A DNA stretch of 27,494 nucleotides, taken from the NCBI GenBank assembly GCA_049972095.1, contig JBMFKQ010000023.1:1-27494 (forward strand), in the 5' to 3' direction. Below the pieces are notes generated by a model. The model ran no database searches, was not told the DNA's origin, and saw only the letters and a list, made by a program, of their open reading frames with translations. Shown piece after piece: positions 8,081 through 24,090 of the stretch (position 1 is the first letter of the stretch; each line of letters opens with the position of its first letter). The stretch comes from Elusimicrobiales bacterium. GTDB taxonomy: Bacteria; Elusimicrobiota; Elusimicrobia; Elusimicrobiales; UBA9959. Position numbers and translations under genes: made by a program.

Positions 8081-8938
8081 ATGACTTCCGGAAAGATGGG
8101 TCCTGATCAGGAACCTGATTATGATTATAAATCACTGCCCGAGGGTTACGGTAGTACTGAGGCAGTTCTCCTTCCAAGGGATCCTTACTGGATGTATGTT
8201 TATTGGGAGATTACAGAGAATTCAATTAAAAATCTTATCTCTTCTATAGGGCATGAGACATTCTCAAAATCAAAAAGGATTCTAAGAGTGTATGAGCTTG
8301 ATAAAAATGATAATCCTGTTTCATATACTGATATACCAGTTATTTTTGAGGCGAAAAATTGGTATGTGAATGTAAAGGAGTGTGGCAAGACATATATGTG
8401 TGAAATAGGATTGATGATGCCTGATGGAAGGTTTGTAGGGATAGTTAAAACAAACAAGGTTTCTCTTCCAAAAGCAGGTGTCTCAGATGTTATAGATGAG
8501 AAATGGATGATTGTCAACCAGGAGTTTGAAAAACTTCTTGAGATATCGGGGGTTGACTATATAGGTAAAGGCTCGGCAGAGATTGCAAAATCACTTGCTC
8601 AAAGGTGGGAGATGCTTAGAAGTGTATTTTCAAGAATCTCGTCATTTGGAATTTCGTCCTTTTCATCGCAGGCAGTGATGAAGGAAAAATATGAAAAGGA
8701 GAGGTTTTTTTGGCTTGTAGCTGACTGTGAGCTTGTAGTTTATGGCGCAACTCAACCTGATGCTTCTCTTTATGTTGGTGATAGGAAGGTGAAGCTTAAT
8801 CCTGATGGAACATTTGCTCTTAGATATGCTTTGAAAGAAGGGGATACAACTATTCCTATTAAAGCTGTTTCTAAGGATGAATCTATGTCGAAAGGGATAA
8901 CCTTTAAAATATCAAGAGAGACAAAAAAAGATGAATAG
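8081..8938 (+). CDS. DUF4912 domain-containing protein
   Basis: LP.GYG...VLLPRDPYWMYVYWEI, NWY, FWLVADCELVVYGATQPDA, LNPDGTF; typical partner upstream of GH57 branching enzymes; AAGGAG SD. Confidence 0.85.
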   Translation: MTSGKMGPDQEPDYDYKSLPEGYGSTEAVLLPRDPYWMYVYWEITENSIKNLISSIGHETFSKSKRILRVYELDKNDNPVSYTDIPVIFEAKNWYVNVKECGKTYMCEIGLMMPDGRFVGIVKTNKVSLPKAGVSDVIDEKWMIVNQEFEKLLEISGVDYIGKGSAEIAKSLAQRWEMLRSVFSRISSFGISSFSSQAVMKEKYEKERFFWLVADCELVVYGATQPDASLYVGDRKVKLNPDGTFALRYALKEGDTTIPIKAVSKDESMSKGITFKISRETKKDE

Positions 8939-10538
8939 CGAAAAGGGTTATCTCTGCCTCGTTCTTCATGCACATCTGCCTTTCGTAAAACATCCAGAAT
9001 ATAGCGATTTTCTTGAAGAGGATTGGTTTTTTGAGGCAATGTGTGAGACATATATCCCACTTCTTGATGTTTATGAGAGATTGTCCAGTGAAGGGGTTGA
9101 TTTTAGGGTTACTATGTCTCTAACCCCACCACTGTGTAATATGATGGCAGATCCCTTGCTGAATGAGAGATTTAAAACCTATGTTTATAAGAGGATAGAG
9201 CTGTGCGAAAAAGAGATTTTTAGAACTAAGGATACTCCTTTTTACAAAACTGCTTGTATGTATCTGGAAAGGTTTAAAAGAATAAGAGAGCTCTATGAGG
9301 ATTATTACCACGGCAATGTTATAAATGGTTTTAAAAAGTTTCAGGATGCTGGAAAACTTGAGATAATAACCTGTTGTGCAACTCATGGTTTTCTTCCACT
9401 TCAAGTCAAGAGGGAAGCAGTAAATGCTCAGATTAAAATAGCAACAGATGATTACAAACAGAGATTTGGTCGGATGCCAAGGGGTGTATGGCTTAGTGAA
9501 TGTGCTTATAACCCGGGGGATGATTATTTTTTAAAAGATTATGGCATAAGGTTTTTCTTTCTTGAGACTCATGGAATACTATATGGCACACCAAGACCAA
9601 GGTATGGAGTTTATGCACCTGTTTATTGCCCAAGCGGTGTTGCTGCATTTGCAAGGGATATGGAGAGTGCTCATCAGGTGTGGAGTGCTGAGATGGGGTA
9701 TCCTGGGGATTATAGATACAGGGAGTTTTATAGAGATGTTGGTTATGACCTTGATTATGAATACATAAAGCCATACCTTCACTCTGATGGGATAAGGAGA
9801 AATGTTGGGATAAAGTATCATAAGATAACTGGAAAAGTCTCGTTAGGTGAAAAGCAGCCTTATGATCCGGATGATGCAAGAGAGGTTGCAGCAATTCACG
9901 CAGGCAATTTTATGTTCAATAGAGAAAGACAGGTTGAATATCTTTACAGCTTTCTTGGAAGGAAACCTGTTGTTGTTTCTATGTATGATGCTGAGCTTTT
10001 TGGACATTGGTGGTTTGAGGGCGTGTGGTTTTTGGAGTATCTTTTTAAAAAGATTTATTATGATCAAAAAAACATCAAGATGATAACACCTATTGAGTAT
10101 CTTCAAATATATCCAGATAATCAGATTGTTCAGCCAATAATGTCAAGCTGGGGGGATAAGGGTTATAATGAGGTTTGGCTTAATGGTTCAAACGACTGGA
10201 TATATCGTCATCTGCACAAAGCAACAGAAAGAATGATTAACCTTGCAAATAGGTTTTACAACACATCAGATCCTCTAATTATAAGAGCCTTGAAACAATG
10301 TGCAAGGGAGGTTGTTTTAGCCCAAAGCTCTGATTGGCCTTTTTTGATGACCGTTGGCACAGCAAAAATATATTCAACAAGAAGATTTATTACTCATATT
10401 CAAAGATTTACAAAGTTGTGGGAAGGGCTTGAGAGTGGAAGCATTGATGAAGGTTTTCTTGCTGACTGTGAGTGGAAGGATTCAATATTTGCTGATATAG
10501 ATTGGAAGGCATTTTCAACCTATAGCCTTAAAAATTAA
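8931..10538 (+). CDS. GH57 family 1,4-alpha-glucan branching enzyme (DUF1957)
   Basis: LVLHAHLPFV, EEDWFFEA..ETYIPL, ATHGFLPL, WLSECAY (nucleophile E), YDAELFGHWWFEG (acid/base D), AQSSDWPF. Confidence 0.93.
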   Translation: MNSEKGYLCLVLHAHLPFVKHPEYSDFLEEDWFFEAMCETYIPLLDVYERLSSEGVDFRVTMSLTPPLCNMMADPLLNERFKTYVYKRIELCEKEIFRTKDTPFYKTACMYLERFKRIRELYEDYYHGNVINGFKKFQDAGKLEIITCCATHGFLPLQVKREAVNAQIKIATDDYKQRFGRMPRGVWLSECAYNPGDDYFLKDYGIRFFFLETHGILYGTPRPRYGVYAPVYCPSGVAAFARDMESAHQVWSAEMGYPGDYRYREFYRDVGYDLDYEYIKPYLHSDGIRRNVGIKYHKITGKVSLGEKQPYDPDDAREVAAIHAGNFMFNRERQVEYLYSFLGRKPVVVSMYDAELFGHWWFEGVWFLEYLFKKIYYDQKNIKMITPIEYLQIYPDNQIVQPIMSSWGDKGYNEVWLNGSNDWIYRHLHKATERMINLANRFYNTSDPLIIRALKQCAREVVLAQSSDWPFLMTVGTAKIYSTRRFITHIQRFTKLWEGLESGSIDEGFLADCEWKDSIFADIDWKAFSTYSLKN

Positions 10539-10633: not shown

Positions 10634-11002
10634 TTATTCTTTTTCAAGTAGTGCTTTGACCTTTGCAAGAAGTATATCATTTTCAAAGGGTTTTGTGAGA
10701 TATTCATCGGCACCATACTCAAAACCCTGTATTTGGTCATTAACCATTGCTTTAACTGTAAGCATTATAACTGGAATGTCAAAAAGCTCTTCATCCTCTC
10801 TTATCTTGCTTAGAGTTTCAAATCCATTTAAATTTGGCATATTGACATCAAGTATTACAAGGTCATATTTTTCGATTTTAAGTTTTTCCAAACCATCCAC
10901 ACCATCCTTTGCAGTGTGAACCTCATATCCATTGTCTTCAAGAAGCTCTTTAACAAGATGTCTGAATATAACATCATCATCCACCACAAGAATCTTTTTC
11001 AT
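10634..11002 (-). CDS. Single-domain (CheY-like) response regulator receiver
   Basis: ILVVDDD, DLVILDVNMP, MLT, YLTKPF; all phospho-acceptor residues intact; GGAGG SD. Confidence 0.93.
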   Translation of the reverse strand: MKKILVVDDDVIFRHLVKELLEDNGYEVHTAKDGVDGLEKLKIEKYDLVILDVNMPNLNGFETLSKIREDEELFDIPVIMLTVKAMVNDQIQGFEYGADEYLTKPFENDILLAKVKALLEKE

Positions 11003-11020: not shown

Positions 11021-11716
11021 TTATTTTCCTTCATAAATATATCCTGTCCCCCATATGCTTTTTATCTTTGAAGCAAGTGGGGGAACGGCATCTTTTATCA
11101 TCTGTATGTGTTTGTCTATAATCTGCGGTGTTACTCTGTCAAGCTTCTCTGAATAAACTATTGATGCTATTTTATATCTTTCAACCTTTTTACCTTCATT
11201 TGATATCAGTATTGCAAGTATTGCAGTCTGTTTTTTTGTGAGCTTATAGTCTTTATTATCTACCGTGATTTTAAAATTTTCTGTATCAAGAATAGTACTT
11301 CCATCCAGAGATGTGATTTTTTGTTTTTTTGTTTTTTTAAACTCAGCTCTGAAAAGTGCTATTACCTTTGCAATTATAAGGTGAGGATCTTGAGTGCTAC
11401 TCATAACATCAACTGCCCCATTTATTATTATTTCATATATATCCGATACTGAGAGATTTGCGTTATGAAGAAATATAAATTTTACTGTTGGATATCTATC
11501 AATAAGTCTTATTATCTCATTCTTGCTTTCTTTTTTTATCTCATATATACTTACTGCAAATTCTTGCTGTGAGTTTATTTTTTCAAGCATATTTTTATAA
11601 TCAGTTTCAGTATTGAAAATAAAACCCTTTATACTTCTTATCTCAAGCAAAGAGGATATTTTTTCTGCTATATTTTTGTTGGTGAAGATTAATATATTCT
11701 TAAACAAAAATTTCAT
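11021..11716 (-). CDS. OmpR/PhoB-type transcriptional regulator with degenerate (pseudo-)receiver
   Basis: C-terminal winged helix (LTKKQTAILAIL...IDKHIQMIK...IKSIWGTGY); receiver-like N-terminus lacks the DD pair, the acceptor D and the conserved K. Confidence 0.75.
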   Translation of the reverse strand: MKFLFKNILIFTNKNIAEKISSLLEIRSIKGFIFNTETDYKNMLEKINSQQEFAVSIYEIKKESKNEIIRLIDRYPTVKFIFLHNANLSVSDIYEIIINGAVDVMSSTQDPHLIIAKVIALFRAEFKKTKKQKITSLDGSTILDTENFKITVDNKDYKLTKKQTAILAILISNEGKKVERYKIASIVYSEKLDRVTPQIIDKHIQMIKDAVPPLASKIKSIWGTGYIYEGK

Positions 11717-11771: not shown

Positions 11772-12818
11772 ATGAGATCAAAAATTTTCATCTATCTTCT
11801 CATTGTATCATTTCTCTGTGTGAGGAGAAATTACTGCTTTGTCTCATCTTCGTCTGATTATGAGCTTTTAAACTCTAACATACCAAACTCCTCCTCGATC
11901 TCACAAGGAAATAGTTTTTTTACAGAAGGCTGTTTGGGACAGAATATTGCAACTGATAATGTTAGAAAGAGTAGTGATTACGTAGTGAGAAATGGATTTT
12001 ACAACCCGGCTCATTTCCAGTTTCAAAAAAAACTTCCTGGAGTATATCAGTGGAGTGATGAGAGAAGTGTTGTGTTTGCTCAGGATTCTGTTGATCTTGA
12101 TAGGTTTGATATATTTTGGAGAGAAAAAGATATTACAGATGGAGATGATGTTGCACAGGCAACGAGAAAGATTTCAATGATAAAGGGTGTTGAAATACCA
12201 TCAGTTGAGTCTTTTGAGTTTGCTTGTTTTAATGAAGAGGATTTTACAACTAAATTTGCAAAACCAGCTAAGCTCAGAATTAAGGTTAGCGATACAGACG
12301 GGGATGGATATGTTGATGGTAGTAATAAGGTAAAACTTAAAACTCTTGAAGGTTATATTTATGACAGTGAATACAAACTCTGGGCAAAAGCATTTTCAAG
12401 CAGGGTGAGTTATTATGGAACTGTTGCATTTGTTGATTTTGAAACACTGTCAGGCGGATTATTTGCAATAATGGGTGATATTGATACAAGTGTTAAGGAT
12501 GTATATGCATTTCCAGTGCCATTTAGACCAAATGGTCCAAAAGCAGGTAAGTGTCCAGGATGTACAGGAACAGATGAAGATGGGATTGTTTTTTACAACA
12601 TTCCACAAAAGGGATACATAGAGATATACACTGTTGATGGAAGGATTGTTAAAAAACTTATCATTGATAATCCACCGGATAGCAAGATAAAGTGGGATAC
12701 AAAGAATGAGGAGGGGGAAAAAGCGGCAAGTGGCGTATATATATGGCGGGTTGTGTCTGAAAGCTACATGCCGGGTTATAAGAATACAAAGACAGGAAAA
12801 CTGGTAATAATAAGATAA
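11772..12818 (+). CDS. Secreted protein with FlgD-Ig / T9SS type-A-like C-terminal sorting domain
   Basis: Likely start ATG 11772 (MRSKIFIYLLIVSFLC signal); DTDGDGYVDG Ca-binding-like loop; VYAFPVPFRP...IEIYTVDGRIVK...KWDTKNEEG...ASGVYIW...KTGKLVIIR. Confidence 0.8.
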   Translation: MRSKIFIYLLIVSFLCVRRNYCFVSSSSDYELLNSNIPNSSSISQGNSFFTEGCLGQNIATDNVRKSSDYVVRNGFYNPAHFQFQKKLPGVYQWSDERSVVFAQDSVDLDRFDIFWREKDITDGDDVAQATRKISMIKGVEIPSVESFEFACFNEEDFTTKFAKPAKLRIKVSDTDGDGYVDGSNKVKLKTLEGYIYDSEYKLWAKAFSSRVSYYGTVAFVDFETLSGGLFAIMGDIDTSVKDVYAFPVPFRPNGPKAGKCPGCTGTDEDGIVFYNIPQKGYIEIYTVDGRIVKKLIIDNPPDSKIKWDTKNEEGEKAASGVYIWRVVSESYMPGYKNTKTGKLVIIR

Positions 12819-12828
12819 AGGAGGTAGT

Positions 12829-13719
12829 ATGGAAAGGATGAAATCGCTAATGATAGCGATCATCGTCACCTGCATAGCAGTTATGGTAAACACTGCTTAT
12901 GCAGAATACAACAGGGGTGCTAACAACTATGGAGACGATAATGGAACTGAGTTTGGCGCTCAGGATGACCTTGTTGTGCTTGGAACTCAAGGCAACTGGT
13001 TTGACCCTGATGTTGAGATATATGGTTTCACCATATTTGGCTCAACAGTGGGTGTGACACCCAAAATATCCCCATCAACTGGAAGTGTATTTATAGGCGG
13101 GAACCTGCAGGTTGAATCTACTGCATATATCAAAGGGCTTGAGATACCTCAGGCTGGTGACATATCAAGCCTTAAGTTTCCAGGAGGTACTGCAAGAAAG
13201 GTACTTAGAATGAGGTCAGATGGCTATGTGGAGTTTGCAGATCCAAATGATCTTGGGGTTGCTGGCGACAACCTTGGAAATCACATAGCCACAAAGACAC
13301 TTGATATGGCTGGGTATGATATAATCAATCTAAAAAATCTTCAGTTTGGAAATGCTAACCTTATTATATCAACTAACTCAGCAAACTTTGGTGGTGCGGG
13401 TTCTGCAGTTTATATATCAACAAATGTGGATGTAAAAGGAGAGATCCGTGTAGGCAGTGATGCAACAATCATCAGTAGTGCAACAATAGGTGGGACTCTT
13501 GGGGTCACCGGCGCAGTAACACTATCAAATAACCTTACTGTAAATGGAGATACTACTGTAAAGGGAAATACTACTATTGGTGATAATTCAACAAATACCC
13601 TCACAATAAAGCCCGCGGCTGTGAAGCTTGGAAACCTTTCTGAAGCTAATAGCAAAGTTGAATACAAAGATTCTGATGGTAATAAAACTGTTGCTTTTTT
13701 CATAAAGAAAGTAAGATAA
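12829..13719 (+). CDS. Secreted fibre/adhesin-like beta-repeat protein
   Basis: AAGGAGG SD; signal peptide ending AYA-E; GDNLGNHIAT motif; G/T/V-rich beta-helix-like repeats (GGTLGVTGAVTLSNNLTVNGDTTVKGNTTIG). Confidence 0.7.
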   Translation: MERMKSLMIAIIVTCIAVMVNTAYAEYNRGANNYGDDNGTEFGAQDDLVVLGTQGNWFDPDVEIYGFTIFGSTVGVTPKISPSTGSVFIGGNLQVESTAYIKGLEIPQAGDISSLKFPGGTARKVLRMRSDGYVEFADPNDLGVAGDNLGNHIATKTLDMAGYDIINLKNLQFGNANLIISTNSANFGGAGSAVYISTNVDVKGEIRVGSDATIISSATIGGTLGVTGAVTLSNNLTVNGDTTVKGNTTIGDNSTNTLTIKPAAVKLGNLSEANSKVEYKDSDGNKTVAFFIKKVR

Positions 13720-13747
13720 AGGTTGCTTTGAACCAAAAAAGGGAAGT

Positions 13748-15031
13748 ATGATTCTTAAAGGAATAAGAAGAGGATACAAGGCAGAAGCAAAATGGCTCAT
13801 CTTTAGCTTTATGCTCTTATTCTTTTCTCTATCTAACCTGTTAGCTGAGATACCTGTTAAGTTCATATACCAGGGAAATCTGAGAGAGAAGGGGATCCTT
13901 GTAAGTGGGATAAGGCAGATGCAGTTTAAGGTATATGATTCAACATCATCCTCAACACCACTGTGGGTTGGACCCGTAGTTGATGTTTCAATATCCACAG
14001 GGGTTTTTAGAGTTGTTGTTGAACCTTCTCTTTCAAGAGGTGATCTTAACAAGGTTCTTTATCTTGAGTTAACAGTTAATTCTCAGACATTATCACCAAG
14101 AGAGCAGATACTTCCATCAGTCTATGCAATTAACACACTTTATCATGAGGGCAAAAGGTATCATACTTCTTCATCCACCCCTTCTGATGCTAATGCGGGG
14201 GATCTGTGGTTTAATACAAATGAGAATATACTCTATTACTATACTGGAGCTCAGTGGATTGGTGTCTCAGTTTCGAGTTCTCCTTCACCACATCATCTAT
14301 CTCATGAGCCAGGTGGTGATGATCTCATAACAAGGCTCAGCACCATTACATTTGAAGGAAGCATAATAGTATCAAGCAATAGCTATATTACAACCACAGG
14401 AGGCATACTTAATGTCTCAACAAACACCACCATTACCGGATATATTAGTGTTTCATCATATGTTTATGCATCGGGTTTTTCAGGTGATGGTTTTCTTATA
14501 ACAAATATAAACGGAGCAAATATAAGGGATTCAACTATGCCTCCTTCGAAGCTTACGCCGTGTTCAAATGGTCAAACGCTTATTTATAACGGCTCTTCAT
14601 GGGTTTGTGGAAGTATAAGCTTAGTTGCTGAAACAGATCCCTGGTCAATTCATAATTATTTTATCACCTCAAGCTCACAGACTGCATCCTTCTGGGTTTC
14701 AAGTGGAACTGTTGAAAGTTTCTATGTTTTAAACAATCTTGATGTTTATCAGACAGCAAGATTCAACCCCTCTTCAAATGGACTTTTTATAACATCATCA
14801 GGAAATGTTGGAATAGGAGATCCAAATCCTTTGAATAAGCTTTCAATAAAGGGGGATGTGAATATTGACAGTGGTGGAAAGGATGCATTGACAATTACTC
14901 CATCAGCCAATGTTGGTATTGGAGTTGATAACCCATCTTCAAAGTTTGAGGTTGTTGGAGAGGATCAGCCAGGAATGATAACTGTTTATAAAGCAGGTGA
15001 TAAACGGATAGGATTTTTTAGAAGGAAATAA
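13748..15031 (+). CDS. Secreted phage-tail-fibre-like trimeric adhesin
   Basis: Signal peptide; IPVKFIYQGNL N-domain; GDLWFNT...LYYYTG..W, HHLSHEPGGDD and ETDP motifs; two NVGIG..NP..K repeats. Confidence 0.72.
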   Translation: MILKGIRRGYKAEAKWLIFSFMLLFFSLSNLLAEIPVKFIYQGNLREKGILVSGIRQMQFKVYDSTSSSTPLWVGPVVDVSISTGVFRVVVEPSLSRGDLNKVLYLELTVNSQTLSPREQILPSVYAINTLYHEGKRYHTSSSTPSDANAGDLWFNTNENILYYYTGAQWIGVSVSSSPSPHHLSHEPGGDDLITRLSTITFEGSIIVSSNSYITTTGGILNVSTNTTITGYISVSSYVYASGFSGDGFLITNINGANIRDSTMPPSKLTPCSNGQTLIYNGSSWVCGSISLVAETDPWSIHNYFITSSSQTASFWVSSGTVESFYVLNNLDVYQTARFNPSSNGLFITSSGNVGIGDPNPLNKLSIKGDVNIDSGGKDALTITPSANVGIGVDNPSSKFEVVGEDQPGMITVYKAGDKRIGFFRRK

Positions 15032-15085
15032 AATGCAACAAGATGAGGAACAAAGATTAAAATGGCTGTGAGTAAGGGATGAGCT

Positions 15086-16804
15086 ATGCGATGGGTAATA
15101 CCAAAACTAATTATCTATACCTTTCCTGTGTTAATACACCTGATTGTCAATACATCTCTTTTTGCTGGATCAGCTGGTGTAAGTGGAGCCTTGTTTTTGA
15201 ATTATTCTCCCTCTGCAAGGGCATCTGCCATGGCAAACTCCTTTTCAAGTGTTACTGATGATGTTTTTAGTATTTACTACAATCCTGCTGGACTTGTTAA
15301 TGTCGAGCAAGTTGAAATAGGAGCCTCGTATATAAAATCATTTGAGGATATGTCAAATCAATATCTTTCAGTTGCCTACCCTTATAAGCCCGGAAGGATT
15401 TTAGGCTTTGCCTTTCAGTCTTTTTCAAACGGTGATATTCAAGGCTATGATGCAATGGGTAGCCCAACAGGTAAGGTTGATACATCAAATAAGGCTGTTA
15501 CTTTTTCATACTCAAAGGCTTTTACAAAGGATGAGATAGAAAGAGCTGTTCTTGAAGGCGGTGTAAACCTTAAGTATATTTCCCAGACCCTTGATGGAGC
15601 AGGTGCTTCAACATTTGCGTTTGATGTTGGTGCTATATATAATATAAGGCCTGATAAATACTGGTTGAAAGATGTTCCGGCTCAAGAGGTTCGTCTTTCA
15701 GCTATGATAAAGAATTTTGGACCTCCTTTAAAGTTTGACAAAGAACCAGCACCACTTCCCTTTTCTTTTGTTTTTGGTGGTTCTTGGGTAAGTCATCCAT
15801 GGGGAAAACACAGGCTTGTCTTATCCCTTGATAATCTTATTTCCTACGATGACAAATATAAGCTTCTTTTTGGAGCTGAATATTTTCTTTTTCAACTTCT
15901 TTCAGTTAGATTTGGTTATGAAACATCAAAGAGTGTTGGAAGATCTGTTAGTTTTGGAGCGGGTTTTAGGCTTTCTTTTGTGGATATAGATTATTCCATT
16001 GGAGATTATGGGGATCTTGGTAATATGCATAAAATAAACATAGTTGTAAGATTTGGTGAAAAAAGACCCACTCAACCACTTATGGGAGAGGTTGCAAGAA
16101 TAAAGGAAGCAAAACAGATAGCACCTAAGGAAAAAATAGAAAAACTTGAGCTTTTTGCATCTGACTTTATAAAGCTTGCAGAGGATGATATAAATAAGGC
16201 TGATTATGTTTCTGCGATAGATCATATAAAAAAGGCTTTCAACCTTGAGCCTTCTTTTAAGAAAACTAAATGGGAAAAAATCCTTGAAAGGCTACAGAAG
16301 CTTGTCTCAGAACTGAAACTTGACACAACACCAAGAAAACTTGAGATAATCAAAGGTAATGATGAACAAGCAAAGCTTGCTCAAAATGTTATAAACGAAT
16401 GGCTTAACCTCAATGACAAAAAGGCATATCTCCTTGCTCATATAATGTATGGCACAAATCCAAAAGGCCCTACTGTTTTTGAAGAGCTTTTACAGTTTAT
16501 TGCCAAAGAATATGGATTTGCTTTAAGAACTGATGAGTTTCTTGCAAAAGAGGCATGGATAGTCTATAAACTCAAGAAATCAGCAAATTACTTTTATCTA
16601 AAGCAATACAATATGATTGTGGAAAACTGTTCAGAGATAATATTGATAGATCCTCAAAACTATGTGGCACTCACACGCCTTGGTTCTGCTTACTTTATGC
16701 TTGGGGACAAAGATAAGGCAAGATATTATTATGAAAAGGCTCTTGAAATAAATCCAAATGATGTGGTTACTATAGAGTTTATGAGAAAACAGGGGTGGAG
16801 ATAA
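15086..16804 (+). CDS. PorV/PorQ-like (FadL-superfamily) outer-membrane barrel with C-terminal TPR region
   Basis: GALFL...SARASAMANSF...DDVFSIYYNPAGL N-motif; barrel strands ending IDYS...DLGNMHKI; TPR ALTRLGSAYFMLGDKDKARYYYEKALEINP. Confidence 0.82.
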   Translation: MRWVIPKLIIYTFPVLIHLIVNTSLFAGSAGVSGALFLNYSPSARASAMANSFSSVTDDVFSIYYNPAGLVNVEQVEIGASYIKSFEDMSNQYLSVAYPYKPGRILGFAFQSFSNGDIQGYDAMGSPTGKVDTSNKAVTFSYSKAFTKDEIERAVLEGGVNLKYISQTLDGAGASTFAFDVGAIYNIRPDKYWLKDVPAQEVRLSAMIKNFGPPLKFDKEPAPLPFSFVFGGSWVSHPWGKHRLVLSLDNLISYDDKYKLLFGAEYFLFQLLSVRFGYETSKSVGRSVSFGAGFRLSFVDIDYSIGDYGDLGNMHKINIVVRFGEKRPTQPLMGEVARIKEAKQIAPKEKIEKLELFASDFIKLAEDDINKADYVSAIDHIKKAFNLEPSFKKTKWEKILERLQKLVSELKLDTTPRKLEIIKGNDEQAKLAQNVINEWLNLNDKKAYLLAHIMYGTNPKGPTVFEELLQFIAKEYGFALRTDEFLAKEAWIVYKLKKSANYFYLKQYNMIVENCSEIILIDPQNYVALTRLGSAYFMLGDKDKARYYYEKALEINPNDVVTIEFMRKQGWR

Positions 16805-16865
16805 ATGGGATTAAAGGCGAGGGTGCAATAAGAAGATAATTGGATCTAATGTGAAGGAGCGAAGA

Positions 16866-17810
16866 ATGGAGTTTCTTGTGGTAATAGGTGTTCCGGCAAT
16901 ACTTCTTCTTCTTGTGGCTGCTTTTTTGATTGTGAGTCAGACAACGGCGTTTGTCCAATCAACATTTTTTTCTCAAAGGCAGAGGTTTACAAATCAGATT
17001 ATACAGCAGTATATAAATCAGATTGCACTTGCTCAATCTCAAATATATCAAAAATCTAAACAGCTCGAGGATCTCTCTAAAAAGCTTATAATGTCAAACC
17101 AGGAGCTTGAGAGATTAAACGAGATGAAATCAAAGTTTCTTTCAATGGTTGTTCATGATGTAAGAACACCACTTTCTTCAATAAAGGGTTTCAGCGAACT
17201 CGTCTTAAAAAAGGTTGATGATCCAAGGCTTAAAGACTATACAAAAAACATTGTTCTTGCCTCAGAACAGCTTGGAAGGCTTATTAGTGACCTTACAGAT
17301 CTTGCAATGATTGAAGCAGGAAAGCTAAAGATAGAGAAAAAGGAGTTCTACTATCCTGATGCACTTATTGATATTCTTCCTTCAATGAAAATAAATGCTG
17401 AAAAAAAGGGTGTTAATCTTATTGTTGGTGAGATTCCTGAAAACTGCTATGTTGTAGGTGATAAATTTAGATTATCTCAGGTTATTATGAACCTTTTAAA
17501 TAATGCAATAAAATTCACCCCACCTGGTAAGAGTGTTGAGATATTTTTCAAAAGAGAAGGAAATTTTATCTTAACGGTTGTAAGAGATGAGGGCATAGGT
17601 ATTCATAAAAGCGAGATTAAAAAGATCTTTGAAAAATTTTATCAGGCGAAATATCAGAAGGATGAGAAGCTTAAGAAACAGGGATGGGGACTTGGCCTTT
17701 CAATTGCTCAAGAGATAGTAAGACAACATAATGGTGAGATATGGGCCCAAAGTGCGGGGCTTGGAAAAGGCTCAACTTTTGTATTCAAAGTAAAGGCAAT
17801 CTTTAAATGA
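16866..17810 (+). CDS. Membrane-anchored histidine kinase (HisKA + HATPase_c) without an extracellular sensor domain
   Basis: One N-terminal TM, coiled coil, H-box VVHDVRTPL, N-box NLLNNAIKF, G1 DEGIGI, F-box IFEKF, G2 GWGLGL; AAGGAG SD favours ATG 16866. Confidence 0.93.
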   Translation: MEFLVVIGVPAILLLLVAAFLIVSQTTAFVQSTFFSQRQRFTNQIIQQYINQIALAQSQIYQKSKQLEDLSKKLIMSNQELERLNEMKSKFLSMVVHDVRTPLSSIKGFSELVLKKVDDPRLKDYTKNIVLASEQLGRLISDLTDLAMIEAGKLKIEKKEFYYPDALIDILPSMKINAEKKGVNLIVGEIPENCYVVGDKFRLSQVIMNLLNNAIKFTPPGKSVEIFFKREGNFILTVVRDEGIGIHKSEIKKIFEKFYQAKYQKDEKLKKQGWGLGLSIAQEIVRQHNGEIWAQSAGLGKGSTFVFKVKAIFK

Positions 17811-17863
17811 TTTTTAATATTAAAGAAAAAAAATTGTAATATAATTTATGATATGATATAGGT

Positions 17864-18613
17864 ATGAAAATAGATAAAACAACACTGATTGGGATATTAA
17901 TGTTTGTTGGAGTTATAGGATATAGTTATGTTGCAGGAGATCTTCCTCGTGTAATTTTTAATCTTCATGCATTTCTTGTTGTTATAGGGGGAACTTTGAT
18001 AGCGACATTCATCAGCACTCCTTACCGATACCTTAAAAAAACATTGACTTATTCTTATCTCTTTTTGAAAGAGGGAGATGAGTCAAAGCCTCAAGAAACA
18101 ATTTCATATATAGTTGAGATAAGTGATAATGTGAGAAAGCAGGGATTTAGAGCTTTGAGGGATGTAGATCCAAATATCGCAAATGGTTTTGTTAAAAGGG
18201 TGAGTGATGCAATAGTTGAATATGCAGATATGCAGTTTATAAAAAGTGTTATGGAACAGGAGATTAATAATAATTTTGATGAGATAAATGAGGTTTCAAA
18301 TGTGTGGAGGGTTATGGCAGTTCTTGCTCCGATGTTTGGACTTGTTGGGACTCTTATTGGAATAATAGGGGTTCTTAAGGAGATATCAAATCCTGAAATG
18401 GTAGGACCTTCAATGAGTGTTGCAATAACATCAGCATTTTATGGCATATTTCTTTCAAATGTGATTTTTACTCCAATTGCAAATAAGATAAGAACAAGGG
18501 CGATAATGCATCTTAAATTCAAAGCAATGGTACTTGATGGGATGCTGGAAATAATGAAAGGGTCTGTTGGGTTGATGATTGAAAGAAAGCTTAAATCTTA
18601 TATTGATATGTAA
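17864..18613 (+). CDS. motA: Flagellar-type stator A subunit (MotA/PomA family)
   Basis: D.TTLIG, AFLVVIGGT, cytoplasmic RKQG loop, APMFGLVGTLIGII, GPSMSVAITSAFYG...PIANK; 4-TM layout. Confidence 0.9.
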   Translation: MKIDKTTLIGILMFVGVIGYSYVAGDLPRVIFNLHAFLVVIGGTLIATFISTPYRYLKKTLTYSYLFLKEGDESKPQETISYIVEISDNVRKQGFRALRDVDPNIANGFVKRVSDAIVEYADMQFIKSVMEQEINNNFDEINEVSNVWRVMAVLAPMFGLVGTLIGIIGVLKEISNPEMVGPSMSVAITSAFYGIFLSNVIFTPIANKIRTRAIMHLKFKAMVLDGMLEIMKGSVGLMIERKLKSYIDM

Positions 18614-18622
18614 GATGGTTAT

Positions 18623-20152
18623 ATGAAAAAAAAAGCGAGATATAGAATTTTAGAATTTAAAGCCCTGTTTTATGTTGTATTCTTTATCTTTCCAATAACT
18701 CTTTATCTTTCATCGCAGGAGGAGGTAGTTGAAAACAAGGCAAGATATGAAAATTTCCTTTCAGGAAAGCTCGAAAATGCTTTAACAAAGATCCTTGGAC
18801 CCAATCAAGTTAAGGTGTTAGTTGATGTCACTATGGATTACAGCAAAATTGAGAAGGTGGAATATGAAAGGAATAAAGAAAAAAAGGAATCACTTAAATT
18901 TTCACTTGAAAAAGAAGCAGGAGATATAAGTGGTGTTGAATATCTTATGCCTGGTTTTCAAGTTCCAACCATAGCTACGAAGGAAGATGATTTCCCGAAA
19001 TCTTATACAAAACAGCTTCTTATCCCATCAAATATGATTAAAAGAATAAAGGTTAGCCTTATAGTAAATGAAAATATAAATAACCAGATGGTATCCGCAA
19101 TTACAGATATAACCAAGCAGGTGCTTTCTCTTGATGAAAAGAGAGGCGATCAGGTTATTGTTATAAAATCATTCTTTGCACCAATGTGGAAGACAATATG
19201 GTATGATCCGCAATCATTTAATTTTATAATGAGATACATAATATTATCACTTGTAGGAGTTATTAGTCTTTTGATTGTAGCAATGGGTTTTTTAAAGCTT
19301 GCAAGCGCTATGAATACAATGGCAAGGGTTCATCAAACTCATCAGATAACAATGGAGGTTAATCCTGGACAAGGACAGGGTTTATCACCTCAAGGAGTAG
19401 TAATTCCTGACATGAGCAAACCACAGGGTTTCATAGAAGGAGCAAAAATATCCTCTGAGACAGCAGAAGAGAATGCAGAAAAGGTTTATTTTAATGTAAA
19501 ACCATATCAGATAGATGCTCTTGTGAGTCTTATGATAAAGGAAGATCCATCGAATGTTGCGATAGTTGTTGATCATCTAAGGGATGATATTAAAAAGGAG
19601 TTTATATCAAGACTTCCAGAGAATTTTGTGGCAGAGGTAATAAAAGGACTTTCTCAGATAAGATTTATTGATAAGGATACGATTTTGACTCTTAAAGAAG
19701 AGCTTGAGGCAAGACTTGATGGTGTTATTGGGGGTGTTAGAAATACTATAGAGCTTCTCTCACACATGGGGTGGCTTGAAAAATCAAGGATTGTAAAAAA
19801 TATAGAGGTAAAATATCCTGAACTTTATCTTGAGCTTAAAAAACGCATCCTTCTTTTTGATGATCTTGAGTATTTTCAACCAGAAGAAATATCCATAATA
19901 GTATCCTCAACAAACATTGAAGACTGGGCTAATGTCTTTTCTATTATGAATGAGGGTTTGAAAGATAAGTTAAAAGCTGAGTTATCCTCTACAGCATGGA
20001 AGATAATAGAAGAAAAGTCAAAGGGAGAAATAGCAAAGGATAAGATTGAATCATCAATATCGGCGATAATGAGTTCAGTTGAAAAGCTTATTTCTGAGGG
20101 AAGAATAAAAAAACCTGAAATAAAGATTGAAGGTTTTATAAACAAGGAATAA
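18623..20152 (+). CDS. FliF C-terminal ring-building domain / TM / FliG middle and C-terminal domain fusion
   Basis: aa ~40-186 FliF-RBM3-like (KLENALTKILGPNQVKVLV..MDY, IKRIKVSLIVN, DEKRGDQVIV...F); TM ~201-224; FliG-like EDPSNVAIVVDHL, GGVRNTIELL, ILLFDDL, EKLISEGRI. Confidence 0.8.
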   Translation: MKKKARYRILEFKALFYVVFFIFPITLYLSSQEEVVENKARYENFLSGKLENALTKILGPNQVKVLVDVTMDYSKIEKVEYERNKEKKESLKFSLEKEAGDISGVEYLMPGFQVPTIATKEDDFPKSYTKQLLIPSNMIKRIKVSLIVNENINNQMVSAITDITKQVLSLDEKRGDQVIVIKSFFAPMWKTIWYDPQSFNFIMRYIILSLVGVISLLIVAMGFLKLASAMNTMARVHQTHQITMEVNPGQGQGLSPQGVVIPDMSKPQGFIEGAKISSETAEENAEKVYFNVKPYQIDALVSLMIKEDPSNVAIVVDHLRDDIKKEFISRLPENFVAEVIKGLSQIRFIDKDTILTLKEELEARLDGVIGGVRNTIELLSHMGWLEKSRIVKNIEVKYPELYLELKKRILLFDDLEYFQPEEISIIVSSTNIEDWANVFSIMNEGLKDKLKAELSSTAWKIIEEKSKGEIAKDKIESSISAIMSSVEKLISEGRIKKPEIKIEGFINKE

Positions 20153-20155
20153 ATT

Positions 20156-21187
20156 ATGCCGGAAGAAAGATCAATATTTTCAAGGCTAAAACCCATAAAT
20201 ATAGATGAAGAAAAGGAGGAAAACCCTTCTCGTTTTCAAGAAGCATCATCTCAGAAACTCTCCTCATTGAGTGATGTATCCATAAAAAATGATATAGTAT
20301 TTCTTAAGGAAAAGATATCTTCAATAGAAAAAGCAATCTCTGAGTTATCAAAAAGTCAGCTATCTTTAACACCATCTCAAGTTAGAGAGGAAATACTTTT
20401 AGCGATAAAAGGTGTTATAAATGAGGAGTTTTTAAAGATATTCTCAGCTTTGGATAAAAGTGTAGAACAAATCATTGTCAATAGCGTAAGTTCATTGAAA
20501 TCTGAGATTATGAAAATGGTTGATGAGGAGATTAAAAGTTCAATAGATAAAAATCTTTGGGTTATAGAAAGTTTAAAGAATATTAGTTCAGAGGATTTTA
20601 AAAAGCTTGAAGATATGTCAATTAAACTTGACTTTATTGCAAAGCTCTATGATAAGATAGAAAGCTTTGAGGATATACCAAAATGCTTGAGAGATGATAT
20701 GACATCGGAGTTTAATAAGATAACACAGAATATTCAGAATATATTTGTCAGTTTTAAATCAGAGATGCTTGATGAAATTTCAAAAAATATTGAAAAAATA
20801 ACCTATGACAAGCTTTCTGAAATAAAGAATGGATTAATAAGTAGATTTGATGGAGTAGAAAATAGCATTAAACAGGAACTAACGAAAAATACAGCATCAG
20901 TCTCTAATGACTTGCATCTTATTTTAAAGGAAACTGATGATTTGAGTAAGTGTGTTAGTCATATATCAACTATGGTAAAAAAGATTACAGAAGTCCAGGC
21001 TGAGATGATAGAAAAGGAGTTAAAAAGTCTTGAAGTGACTTTCAGAGATCTAAAGAATAAGCTTCTCAGTGAGGAAGAGCTCAAGAATTTAGTTTCAATT
21101 AAAAAATACTCTGGTGTAATGATTGATATAGAAGCAAGAATAAAGCGCATTGAGAGTATTATAGCCTCTATTATAAAAAAATCTTAA
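20156..21187 (+). CDS. Cytoplasmic alpha-helical/coiled-coil hypothetical protein
   Basis: K/E/I/S/L-rich amphipathic helical pattern; no signal peptide or TM; 3-bp and 6-bp gaps to neighbours. Confidence 0.8.
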   Translation: MPEERSIFSRLKPINIDEEKEENPSRFQEASSQKLSSLSDVSIKNDIVFLKEKISSIEKAISELSKSQLSLTPSQVREEILLAIKGVINEEFLKIFSALDKSVEQIIVNSVSSLKSEIMKMVDEEIKSSIDKNLWVIESLKNISSEDFKKLEDMSIKLDFIAKLYDKIESFEDIPKCLRDDMTSEFNKITQNIQNIFVSFKSEMLDEISKNIEKITYDKLSEIKNGLISRFDGVENSIKQELTKNTASVSNDLHLILKETDDLSKCVSHISTMVKKITEVQAEMIEKELKSLEVTFRDLKNKLLSEEELKNLVSIKKYSGVMIDIEARIKRIESIIASIIKKS

Positions 21188-21193
21188 TCTGAC

Positions 21194-21883
21194 ATGGCAA
21201 TATACAGAATAAGAAAAGATGAGCTTGAAAATCAACTGAATAAATCTGCACTTTGGGCTATAACATATGGAGATTTAATGAGCTATTTAATGATATTCTT
21301 TCTTATACTTTTTTCATTTGCCATAGCAAAATCAGATAGGACGAAGCAAAGAAAATATGAGGCATCTCTTATAAAAATTCAGCAAGCCTTTGGTGGTGAG
21401 GTAGGTCATGAGTATCTTGAAAGGAAAAAGCAGGAGATGAACGAGGAGGATTTTGGAAAAAAGCTTGAGGAACTCAAAGAAAAAAGTGCAAAAAATATCT
21501 TTGAGGTTGAGATAAATGAAAAAAGAGTAAAACTTACACTTAAAGAAGGTATTCTTTTTGATTCTGGAAGTGCAGTTCTTAAATCTCAGGCTCAAAATAT
21601 ACTTTTACCTGTGATAAATGAGTTGAAAAAATTGCCAAATGATATTGTTATTGAAGGGCATACGGATAATGTCCCTATAAAAGGAGGACGTTACGCTACA
21701 AATTTTGAACTTTCTATGGCAAGAGCATATTCTGTTATAGAATTTATGAGAAAAAATGGAATTGACCCAAGACGCTTAAGTGGTATAGGATATGGTGAGT
21801 GGAGACCAATAGCAGACAACTCAACACCTGAAGGAAGATCTAAGAATAGAAGAATTGAAATAACACTTATAAGGAAGGATTAA
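21194..21883 (+). CDS. motB: Stator B subunit (MotB/PomB family) with OmpA-like peptidoglycan-binding domain
   Basis: WAITYGDLMSYLMIFFLIL with conserved Asp27; EGHTDNVPI, NFELSMARA, GYGEWRP, RSKNRRIEI. Confidence 0.92.
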   Translation: MAIYRIRKDELENQLNKSALWAITYGDLMSYLMIFFLILFSFAIAKSDRTKQRKYEASLIKIQQAFGGEVGHEYLERKKQEMNEEDFGKKLEELKEKSAKNIFEVEINEKRVKLTLKEGILFDSGSAVLKSQAQNILLPVINELKKLPNDIVIEGHTDNVPIKGGRYATNFELSMARAYSVIEFMRKNGIDPRRLSGIGYGEWRPIADNSTPEGRSKNRRIEITLIRKD

Positions 21884-24090
21884 TTTTTTTGCTTTAAATC
21901 ATAGAGATAGTTTTTTGTGTGAAAGTAGAAATGAGGAAGTGATAGTTTTTTAAATACTCTGTCAATTTTTATAATATCATCTTCTTGCAGTTTTTTCTCA
22001 AATATCATTTTTGCAAACTCTGGCATAAGAATTAAAAGATCATTTGAAGGCTCAAAATCTATTTTAAAGTTTAATTTATTAAGTTTTTCAAGAATACCTT
22101 CAATCTTATCTATTACAGATAAATCATGTCTCTTTATAAATCTGATTATAGAAGAGTTAATAAAGCTTTTAAAATGGTAGCTTATATCTTCATAAAGATT
22201 TTCCTCCACCATTAATGGATATATTTGAGCAATTTCTATAAAAGAGTTTAATTTGTTTTCTATTTCTTCTATCTCTTTTTGTTTTATCTCAGTTAGTATC
22301 AGTTTAAGTAACTCAAGCTGAGCTGGCGTATTAAAGTCATATATTGAGAAAATGTTTGAAATTCCATTGATCTCAGCTGATATTTTTATTCTTTCTAATG
22401 ATGAGAGATCTAAATTTATTTTTAAATTGAACAAACTGCCATCTCTCTTTTTTATTTCACTGGATACCCCGCAAACAAAACCTTGAGTATTACATTTCTT
22501 TATATCTATACTCCATATTGAGTTTTGATATGCATATTCATTTCTAAATAAACTTTTTAATGTTAAATAAACAGCTGTTTTTTTATCATCCATTTTACTT
22601 TTCTTAACAAGCTTTTCATAAACACCTCTTCCATTTTTAAACTCCGAAAAATTTGAAGGGGCAAGTTCAAGCAGTGATATAAATCCCTTTTCTATTCCTC
22701 TGTATCCAAGTTCATCAGTAATCTCTGATGCTTTCATAGCATTTTTCATTATAAGCTGTGACTCTATCCTTGATATATCATTAAAAAACCAGCCGCAACT
22801 TATGCGTGAAAGAGACTTATATCTAAACATCTCAAGTATCTTTAATGCCCTTTCTTTGTTTCCTTTTGTGTTTTCTTTAAGGTGTTTTGAGAAGAATTCC
22901 TCATCTGATATCTTTCCGTTTATTAAATCTATATACTCAATTATAGATGCAAGATTATCTTTGAATAATTTCTTTCCCTCTTCTTCAAATATATCATTTA
23001 CTACTTCACTTAGCCAGTTAACCGCAGCTCTAAGTCCTCTTCTCCATTCTGTTGAGTATTTACCTTCATCTCCGCATGGACATCCTCCACTCCATCTCCT
23101 TATACCATGCTCACAACTCCAGCTTGTTCCCTGACCATCAGGTCCAGGATTGAGTTGGCATATAGCGTAAACTTGTGATTTTTTTAGATACTGGTATGCT
23201 GATATAACCATAATCTCACGCTTTGAAAGTTCATGCCTGAATGTATGTGCTAAGGTTAGATCTGCAAACTTTTGATGATGTCCAAATGTCTCACCATCAC
23301 ATGCTATTACAAGTATATCAGAGTTCGTTTCCAGATATCTATGCTTGAGTTCCTTAGAGAATATCTCTGAGTTGAATGTTATATTGTTGAATGCGACTTT
23401 TTTTGAAAGGATATCATCGTATGCTATTATATCAATAAATCTTGATTGAATATAACTTCCATCAGTTCTATCATACCATCTATAGATTTTATTTGGAAGC
23501 ACAGGTATTTCTTTTTTTGTATCTGGATCAAAGGCTTTTAGTATCTGATGAGGAGAGAGTATGATGTATTTTATTGATGAATCTATAAGTAGCTTTAAGA
23601 CATCTTCATTCACTGCGCATTCTCCAAGCCACATTCCATAAGGTTTTGAACCAAATCTAAACTCAAAATCCTTTATACCCCAGTTTATCTGAACTATCTT
23701 GTCAAGAAACGAGTCAAGAGGTAATATTGTATGATTGTATGCTTGAGCCATAAAGTTGAAGCATGAGTTTTTGGTTTTATTAAATGTTCCTGTTATCTTT
23801 TGATAATAATATGGATATTTTTTTTCAATCCATGAAAGAATAGTAGGTCCGAAATCAAGGTTAAAATATTCGCAGTTATTTATTATCTCAATTATTTCAC
23901 TCTGGTTATCATAGATCCTTGCATAGAGATTTGGAAAATATGATTCCATAGCTATTCTATGATTCCAGTTATCGTAGGGTTTTGAGGTATAGTCAATCTC
24001 TATTTCTCCGGTATATGGGTTTTCTCTTGGAGGTTGATAAAAGTGAGTGTGTATTATTAAATATTTGTTATCTTTGATTTTTCCATCCAT
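21880..24090 (-). CDS. GH57-related glycoside hydrolase, DUF3536 family
   Basis: HTHFYQPPRENP, NWNHRI..ESY, AQAYNHTILPL, GMWLGECAV, DGETFGHH, SWSCEHG..RW, SCGWFF; AGGAG SD. Confidence 0.88.
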   Translation of the reverse strand: MDGKIKDNKYLIIHTHFYQPPRENPYTGEIEIDYTSKPYDNWNHRIAMESYFPNLYARIYDNQSEIIEIINNCEYFNLDFGPTILSWIEKKYPYYYQKITGTFNKTKNSCFNFMAQAYNHTILPLDSFLDKIVQINWGIKDFEFRFGSKPYGMWLGECAVNEDVLKLLIDSSIKYIILSPHQILKAFDPDTKKEIPVLPNKIYRWYDRTDGSYIQSRFIDIIAYDDILSKKVAFNNITFNSEIFSKELKHRYLETNSDILVIACDGETFGHHQKFADLTLAHTFRHELSKREIMVISAYQYLKKSQVYAICQLNPGPDGQGTSWSCEHGIRRWSGGCPCGDEGKYSTEWRRGLRAAVNWLSEVVNDIFEEEGKKLFKDNLASIIEYIDLINGKISDEEFFSKHLKENTKGNKERALKILEMFRYKSLSRISCGWFFNDISRIESQLIMKNAMKASEITDELGYRGIEKGFISLLELAPSNFSEFKNGRGVYEKLVKKSKMDDKKTAVYLTLKSLFRNEYAYQNSIWSIDIKKCNTQGFVCGVSSEIKKRDGSLFNLKINLDLSSLERIKISAEINGISNIFSIYDFNTPAQLELLKLILTEIKQKEIEEIENKLNSFIEIAQIYPLMVEENLYEDISYHFKSFINSSIIRFIKRHDLSVIDKIEGILEKLNKLNFKIDFEPSNDLLILMPEFAKMIFEKKLQEDDIIKIDRVFKKLSLPHFYFHTKNYLYDLKQKN

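Follow-up and report, generated by a model that had tools for sequence, protein, structure and literature searches.

A flagellar-type rotor and stator encoded with a PorV-like outer-membrane barrel in Elusimicrobiota

Gene content of the locus

The window analysed here is one entire contig of 27,494 nucleotides (JBMFKQ010000023.1) from the 1.44 Mb, 96.5% complete genome assembly of an Elusimicrobiales bacterium (GCA_049972095.1; termed G000). Between positions 11772 and 21883 it carries nine genes on the + strand, in which a MotA/MotB stator and a FliF–FliG rotor protein are encoded together with a PorV-like outer-membrane barrel and a histidine kinase. The genes, with abbreviations for a type IX secretion system (T9SS), its C-terminal sorting domain (CTD), tetratricopeptide repeats (TPR) and transmembrane (TM) segments, are as follows.

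11772..12818, + strand: signal-peptide protein with a T9SS-like CTD; variable neighbour
12829..13719, + strand: secreted fibre-like protein without a CTD; no Pfam family over cut-off; variable neighbour
13748..15031, + strand: secreted fibre-like protein without a CTD; no Pfam family over cut-off, weak tail-fibre PHROG matches; variable neighbour
15086..16804, + strand: PorV-family barrel with a TPR tail of ∼245 residues (PorV_fam NF033709, 160 bits, cut-off 90)
16851..17810, + strand: histidine kinase with one TM segment and no sensor domain (HisKA and HATPase_c)
17864..18613, + strand: MotA stator subunit with four TM segments (PRK09109, 158 bits)
18623..20152, + strand: rotor fusion protein of 509 residues (YscJ_FliF_C, FliG_M and FliG_C, all over cut-off)
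20156..21187, + strand: soluble coiled-coil-like protein, no TM segment, fast-evolving sequence; core by position
21194..21883, + strand: MotB stator subunit (MotB_plug and OmpA) with the ion-binding Asp and an OmpA-like wall-binding domain

The gaps between them are 10, 28, 54, 46, 53, 9, 3 and 6 bp, which bears out the co-directional run with short gaps (3–54 bp) reported in a preliminary description made from the sequence alone. The 46-bp gap grows to 60 bp if the kinase begins at the next ATG, the start used by its homologues. The preliminary description also placed a possible internal promoter in the spacer 17811–17863. No site was found there by a promoter scan that misses −10-like hexamers lacking a −35 element and was uninformative, with 51 sites in the window compared with 47.6±6.4 in shuffled sequences. 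An Rfam scan gave no match within the window.

Comparison with related loci shows that the conserved core consists of six genes, namely the PorV-like barrel with its TPR tail, the kinase, motA, the FliF–FliG fusion, the coiled-coil gene and motB. The coiled-coil protein matched no family over cut-off in profile scans and an Atlas search gave only leads below 0.9; a gene of similar size or longer fills its position in most loci.

The rotor protein and its stator

The rotor protein comprises a FliF RBM3/collar region (residues 31–186), a TM segment (206–224), a linker, and FliG M and C domains (296–499). In its structural model (pLDDT 74.8, pTM 0.36, with the collar insertion modelled poorly), residues 31–186 match the RBM3 fold of Salmonella FliF (6scn_A, Z 14.8, root-mean-square deviation (rmsd) 1.8, 100 aligned residues) and residues 296–499 match the FliG M/C fold (1qc7_B, Z 14.8, rmsd 1.3, 87 aligned). 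The RBM3 part also matches SpoIIIAG (Z 8.5, rmsd 3.8, 104 aligned; TIGR02830 weak). Profile and fold thus agree with the FliF–FliG fusion that had been proposed, although its FliF part is limited to RBM3/collar and one TM segment, and FliG_N, RBM1 and RBM2 are absent. In flagella, RBM1/2 of FliF hold the export gate and the EHPQ site of FliG binds FliM. In the alignment this site reads EDPS and the Gly-Gly linker is retained. The hydropathy profile shows two hydrophobic segments, the first of which closes with a small-residue motif before a Gln conserved in the alignment. This first segment is probably a cleaved signal peptide, so that the mature protein is probably single-pass, with RBM3 outside and FliG M/C inside.

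MotA/PomA are the best matches of MotA among solved structures (E 1e-33). The ion-binding Asp of MotB is present in 60 of 63 aligned rows, and the residue equivalent to MotA R90 is Arg or Lys in 52 of 55 and is retained in the window.

Motor genes without a flagellum

The comparisons cover 301 genomes of the phylum and a set of 41 genomes (22 fusion-positive and 19 fusion-negative); G numbers other than G000 (G001, G009, G013 and G022) denote further genomes of the phylum, C numbers contigs, and L numbers loci in the relatives or in G000. The absence of other flagellar genes, noted earlier for the window, holds for the whole assembly by profile and same-genus tblastn searches. In G000, FlhA (FHIPEP) had no matches with a model that was positive in four flagellated control genomes, Flagellin_N had none where the flagellated control was positive, and FliMN_C gave only a match of E 0.059, below cut-off, with a model positive in flagellated controls. 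Export, rod, hook and filament genes from the same genus gave no tblastn match. When ∼60 kb of same-genus flagellar and chemotaxis sequence was used as query, the motor-related matches in G000 were two motAB pairs and a second fusion only; the others were F1 ATPase, sigma factors, kinases, receivers and one sugar-phosphate isomerase-like gene. A flagellar regulon elsewhere in the genome, which would have counted against the preliminary interpretation, was not found in G000, and chemotaxis genes are likewise missing from it. Contig C22 of G001 (L047, L079 and L080), a 60% complete genome of the same genus, holds a full flagellar and chemotaxis regulon that is either real or mis-binned, with a GC content of 25–26% in two of the three loci measured.

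Across the 301 genomes, FliG_C was matched in 128 and FlhA in 8. FliG_C is nearly confined to genomes outside two large families (125/143, compared with 1/97 and 1/60 within them); these two families have small genomes and may be host-associated, non-motile lineages. Five of the eight FlhA genomes also have a fusion-length FliG reading frame, and a tree of 93 FliG M–C domains separates 9 flagellar from 84 fusion-type rows (SH-aLRT 97). The coexistence of fusion and FlhA, together with this split, indicates that the motor is a system separate from the flagellum. The window rotor falls in a 23-row group in the same tree, termed type A (SH-aLRT 100). This was a quick LG+G4 tree confined to FliGs of the phylum, with its root placed by hand. 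Two FliG-only reading frames (L054, 292 residues, and L069, 308 residues) fall with type A but no longer have a FliF part; that of L069 sits behind motA–motB without PorV.

Among the fusion matches listed, the reading frames are open, with no stops. The fusion occurs in up to five copies per genome and its gene order is conserved over dozens of families. Rotor-protein relatives with names are Elusimicrobia records or 'bacterium' in 50 of 50 loci, and one fused homologue carries the NCBI label Elusimicrobiota.

Linkage of the motor to a TPR-tailed barrel

The barrel model (pLDDT 82.7) has 14 strands and a helical TPR tail. Its best Foldseek match is PorV (8gl6_F, E 2e-14; 6h3i_F, E 7e-12), although the PorV equivalog model scored below cut-off. 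Since the strand number is even, the TPR tail is predicted to be periplasmic. There is one Cys in the whole protein.

Gene order was compared in two partly overlapping sets, one of 79 fusions of at least 400 residues (three TPR-only false rotor rows were removed from 82) and one of 47 type-A fusions. Because the loci were chosen as best matches and are kin, the counts serve as description and no statistical test was applied. Of the 79 fusions, 64 have a PorV gene on the same strand no more than 3.5 kb upstream, which makes 64 of the 72 with enough context, seven being at contig edges. Among the type-A fusions PorV is present in 35, lost at an edge in 11 and absent in one; motA is directly upstream in 36, lost at an edge in 4 and not so placed in 7. 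The motor-adjacent barrels are dedicated long paralogues: 62 of 64 have 504–678 residues, compared with 307–358 in 7 of the 10 other paralogues of G000. They also group by rotor type in a FastTree phylogeny with several long branches, with one group apiece for type B (38) and type C (5) and two for type A. TPR tails of type A were detected in 15 of the 41 genomes and those of type B, strongly, in 18; together, 21 of the 22 fusion-positive genomes have TPR-tailed barrels and none of the 19 fusion-negative ones does. The flagellum-independent rotor–stator tied to a T9SS-like outer-membrane carrier, as first suggested for the window, is thus a conserved linkage in relatives. A physical link between ring and barrel would follow from gene order and shared history; a predicted complex of the TPR tail (326–572) and RBM3 (31–190) scored 0.03 against a mark of 0.32, which is uninformative either way.

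The kinase as a core component

The kinase, to which the preliminary description gave no role, is a core part of the machine. It is present in 42 of the 47 type-A loci, with three further loci ending at an edge and two lacking it, and in relatives it can be fused to the rotor. Of the best 150 cluster representatives in a search with the rotor profile, 15 long ones were scanned, of which seven were full kinase–RBM3–FliG chains and one was truncated, and several of the fusion clusters have multiple members. Kinase–rotor fusions were also seen in DNA (L170, 829 residues; L173; L154), and the N-terminal part of the fused homologue P0007 shares 46% identity with the window kinase. In the fused form a segment resembling a signal peptide is retained between kinase and RBM3, so the chain may be cleaved into these two parts. 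The neighbours of the motor genes in relatives are not unrelated, as PorV and the kinase adjoin them. The concern that the four motor genes form a unit of their own appears to be answered, because the kinase is kept beside the motor in relatives and is in some fused to the rotor in frame.

Two regulator genes lie upstream of the run.

10634..11002, − strand: single-domain CheY-like response regulator (Response_reg, 113 bits), divergent from the operon
11021..11716, − strand: OmpR-like regulator with a degenerate receiver (Trans_reg_C, 35 bits), divergent

The best homologues of the CheY-like receiver among the fetched loci are found in L155, L162, L167 and L172, where they separate PorV-TPR from the kinase (E 1e-34 to 1e-38; 52% identity to one), and the window's receiver is probably the partner of the operon's kinase. 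The OmpR-like regulator, which has a divergent counterpart in the same place in L032, is a possible output of the system, although not a conserved part. Kinase complement differs between rotor types: none of the 42 type-B loci, which come from both ends of the phylum, has a kinase gene separating the barrel and rotor genes, and type C has a second kinase-like gene and three receivers.

Other operon types and variable neighbours

G000 holds a second motor operon, of type B, apparently split over two contigs.

C31:1445-5096 (L046) and C15:33010-36364 (L078): type-B operon of G000

It contains a c-di-GMP-I riboswitch, PorV-TPR, FliF–FliG–TPR, a long coiled coil, flbD, motA, motB and a conserved 238-residue protein, flbD–motA–motB being the order in type B. 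The riboswitch directly precedes PorV in all three type-B PorV starts scanned (L046, L056 and L066); the Rfam scan did not find it in the window, L032, L039 or L078. Very large CTD proteins (∼1,800–3,300 residues or more) lie upstream in 27 of 42 type-B loci. In G009, which has no FlhA match, a complete cheY-W-W-R-Y-B-A operon begins 137 bp after the type-B coiled-coil gene (L191:8767-17360), a single case; this operon is followed by an FtsA/MreB-like gene. A further operon type has two tandem motB genes (L096, L102, L105–L108 and L123–L126). In distant families (L089–L094, L098, L100, L101, L103 and L116) a protein of 1,550–2,100 residues, TPR-ended in two that were scanned, lies between the fusion and the coiled-coil gene.

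The three genes upstream of the barrel in the window are variable neighbours and not core. The tail of 11772..12818 matches FlgD_ig and the T9SS type A sorting domain (TIGR04183) at E 6e-4 and 1.5e-3, each below cut-off, and scores E 1.7e-16 with the genome's own CTD profile, which was built including the same protein; an orthologue occupies the equivalent position in L032. Repeats of 12829..13719 recur in proteins of 1259–1603 residues upstream of L032, L039 and L156, of which those of L032 and L039 match tail-spike/virion PHROGs. The N-terminal domain of 13748..15031 is common to the 1603-residue protein of L032 (E 5e-48), L156, L175 and a 1110-residue protein on contig C2 of G000. The label 'fibre-like' given earlier to both proteins rests on weak phage tail-fibre PHROG matches, which come from the second gene only. 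At C2:66016-69869, G000 has a 170-residue CTD protein followed by the 1110-residue fibre-like protein without a CTD, a pairing as in 11772–15031 of the window; small CTD proteins may serve such fibres as adaptors.

Elsewhere in the window, a DUF4912 protein and a GH57 branching enzyme (8081–10538) and, convergent on motB, another GH57 gene, with DUF3536 (21880–24090), belong to glycogen metabolism and bear no relation to the operon.

A T9SS-like background

G000 encodes a SprA/Sov-like protein of 1750 residues (C28:3633-8885, L082) that scores 133 bits with TIGR04189 (E 6.5e-39, in three stretches; cut-off 200). Its Atlas neighbours have SprA_N in 20–75% of members, and a single-sequence PDB search returned no real match. 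The genome also has 12 PorV matches and 9 CTD-like proteins, six of which (1041–2424 residues, on C7, C11, C12, C15, C18 and C24) directly precede their own short PorV paralogue and so resemble cargo–carrier pairs of the type B T9SS. FlgD_ig is over cut-off in three G000 proteins, the window protein falling below it. The sprA-like gene adjoins neither motor operon. GldK, L, M and N were not matched in G000 with models that no genome in the control set passed, so their absence is unproven, and GldM was matched in none of the 301 genomes, likewise without a positive control.

SprA-like matches occur in 282 of the 301 genomes, including 95/97 and 45/60 in the two families nearly devoid of FliG, and two genomes of the first of these families have FlgD_ig proteins and no MotB plug. 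The motor is therefore not a general replacement for GldLM, and the earlier suggestion that it energises secretion in place of GldLM does not stand as a rule. The persistence of secretion parts without the motor argues for a dedicated job of the latter, and a SprA-like pathway in which neither GldM nor FliG is found brings the energy source of such T9SS-like pathways into question.

Proposed function

We propose, tentatively and by analogy, that the core genes encode a dedicated ion-driven motor of the cell envelope that acts on its own carrier barrel and on surface cargo, a proposal to which we give slightly less than even credence. Wall-anchored MotA/MotB stators would push on a ring of the FliF–FliG fusion, whose RBM3 would lie outside and FliG inside, joined by a single TM helix. 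As export gate, rod and switch are lacking, force would pass to the operon's PorV-family barrel via its TPR tail, directly or through a linker, and from the barrel to surface cargo exported by the SprA-like translocon. The arrangement would be akin to SprF/SprB of Bacteroidota on their moving track, in surface motility or in exerting a pull on adhesins, though its rotor would be of the flagellum type. For the type found in the window, the ring would be coupled to the sensorless kinase and the CheY-like regulator, which would report or control its state. A more far-reaching form, which we regard as possible but on balance doubtful, is a third kind of surface motor, in which a one-protein FliF–FliG rotor turned by MotAB drives a dedicated PorV-TPR carrier and an adhesin exported by the T9SS across the outer membrane or around it, while the rotor-bound kinase reads the load. 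If so, the system would combine flagellum and T9SS in a hybrid that is old in the phylum, and no natural FliG motor would be simpler.

Several observations weigh against the proposal of a dedicated motor. A fixed ring could only spin a carrier in place, and no track protein of the GldJ/K/N type was found in G000. Altered charge residues raise a real doubt about torque. The R90–D289 pair places the stator and the E98–R281 pair is important for torque in the flagellar motor, according to PMC4030992. In type A the residue equivalent to E98 of MotA is Lys or Arg (Arg in the window), and in the torque helix the D288 equivalent is mostly Gln (48 of 61 rows, some duplicated) and that of D289 mostly Thr or Ser; by sequence alignment the window FliG has Thr for R281, Glu at 288 and Lys at 289. 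Loss of torque is not proven by these changes, because R281 is also absent from three of the nine flagellar FliGs of the phylum. The adhesin genes are poorly conserved: the CTD gene lies upstream in 2, and a fibre homologue in 5, of the 24 type-A loci (the window counted) that have 5 kb or more of context, contrary to the earlier view that these genes are parts of the machine, and what is found upstream is mostly response regulators and kinases. Eight of the 79 fusions lack PorV within 3.5 kb upstream; in one of them the gene is ∼4 kb upstream, and in two others a PorV gene is divergent or downstream. Among the 19 fusion-negative genomes, at least two owe that status to assembly gaps, as G013 and G022 end contigs with a coiled coil–motA–motB tail, and the loci compared are best matches and kin. 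CheW is present in 4 of the 41 genomes and not in G000, and eight PilB/PilT-type ATPase matches in G000 offer an alternative source of surface motility. An ExbB/TolQ, ExbD/TolR and TonB/TolA-like trio on C1 of G000 (L087:6569-8272) is another possible energy source for outer-membrane work.

The output of the complex could instead be a signal and not movement. Surface contact of barrel-bound cargo would load the ring and stators of such a trans-envelope mechanosensor, and the kinase would read the load and phosphorylate nearby regulators. The conserved kinase without a sensor domain, its in-frame fusion to the rotor in relatives, the cognate-looking receiver inside the operon in four loci, the additional kinase-like gene and receivers of type C, and torque residues that are most changed in type A among the rotor types are all consistent with sensing. 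However, type-B loci manage without a kinase between barrel and rotor gene, cleavage at the signal-peptide-like segment could part the kinase from RBM3, and the kinase could equally be an input that controls the motor. We consider this explanation unlikely, though sensing may be particular to the type found in the window even if type B drives motility.

Improbable, in our judgement, is a general energiser of T9SS-like secretion that replaces GldLM/GldKN, its ring ejecting carrier–cargo complexes from the SprA-like translocon. It would suit the SprA-like gene, PorV matches and CTD-like proteins of G000 and the lack of GldM and GldK/L/N matches, with the missing positive control noted above, and according to PMC12635249 a single Bacteroidota track drives gliding and secretion alike. 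It is at odds with the SprA-like genes and FlgD_ig proteins of families and genomes in which the motor is almost or wholly missing, and with most CTD cargo of G000, which lies beside its own short PorV and away from the motor genes; nor is sprA near either operon. A narrower form could hold, in which the motor energises export of one dedicated large cargo.

We give similarly little credit to a static ring or conduit of the SpoIIIAG kind, a scaffold for the barrel and the coiled-coil protein in which MotAB would serve assembly or tension without continuous rotation. Such a ring would accord with the SpoIIIAG match of RBM3, the absence of FliM/N and the EDPS in place of EHPQ, but the FliF match far exceeds that to SpoIIIAG, FliG_C and MotA/MotB are kept together phylum-wide, and the ion-binding residue of the stator is intact.

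Finally, the genes could be the decaying remains of a flagellum since lost, their neighbours being there by chance, or could encode a type IV pilus helper as suggested by Uzun et al. (10.1101/2022.07.08.499144). This reading would fit the full regulon of G001 and the pilus-type ATPases of G000, but is very improbable and largely refuted by the FliG distribution, the conserved order and the FliG tree, given open frames among the matches listed, multiple copies, coexistence with true flagellar FliG, and a conserved order in which no pilus genes were recognised, no search having been aimed at them.

Relation to known systems

The system is not a flagellum and its membership of a T9SS is not shown; it is a real and conserved hybrid of a flagellar motor core and a T9SS-like carrier, apparently without earlier description. 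Its gene content points to a cell-envelope machine that moves or senses surface proteins. To our knowledge, no FliG ring is known outside flagella. In the present case most families of a phylum retain, without a flagellum, a natural minimal rotor that is tied to a T9SS-like carrier and a kinase. It gives a testable model of what the flagellar motor core can do without an export apparatus, bears on the evolutionary combining of rotor, stator and secretion modules, and is a candidate for how non-flagellated Elusimicrobiota, including magnetotactic ones, move.

In a literature search that covered subscription papers thinly, no paper was found to describe the operon, the fusion or a T9SS in Elusimicrobiota, and the available portions of PMC12204202 and PMC7031533 contain none. 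In the portions available, Uzun et al. (10.1101/2022.07.08.499144) report motAB, flbD and fliG without flagella in free-living Elusimicrobiota from KEGG counts and call their role 'enigmatic', tying it to gliding or twitching; those portions do not include a FliF–FliG fusion, operon, PorV link, kinase fusion or SprA.

SpoIIIAG and EscJ–PrgK share the RBM fold (Z 8.4–8.9), with an inserted beta region in SpoIIIAG. They have no FliG or stator partner, and the rotor protein matches FliF much better. The T9SS is described as Bacteroidota-specific and GldLM-powered. With the T9SS/gliding machinery of Bacteroidota (SprA, PorV, SprF/SprB, GldLM and GldJKN; PMC12635249), the system shares a SprA-like translocon, PorV-fold barrels and CTD-like cargo beside dedicated carriers. 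SprF is there the dedicated carrier that links SprB to the moving track, and in both systems a carrier with a periplasmic tail is encoded with an ion-driven motor (the tail's location and the ion drive being predictions here). In contrast to that machinery, there is no GldLM/GldKN match, the SprA homologue of 1750 residues is below the family cut-off, the motor is of the FliG/MotAB type, and the carrier tail is a 245-residue TPR domain and not a short twin-cysteine tail. The motor itself resembles the core of the bacterial flagellar motor (FliF MS-ring, FliG, MotA/MotB or PomA/PomB stator and FlbD/SwrD), with which the system shares the RBM3/collar and FliG M/C folds, MotA/MotB with the ion-binding Asp and wall-binding domain, and, in type B, the order flbD–motA–motB. 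It departs from that core in lacking an export gate, FliM/N, rod, hook and filament, in its altered torque helix, in a FliF reduced to RBM3 and one TM segment, without RBM1/2, and fused to a FliG without FliG_N, and in the barrel and kinase to which the rotor is linked.

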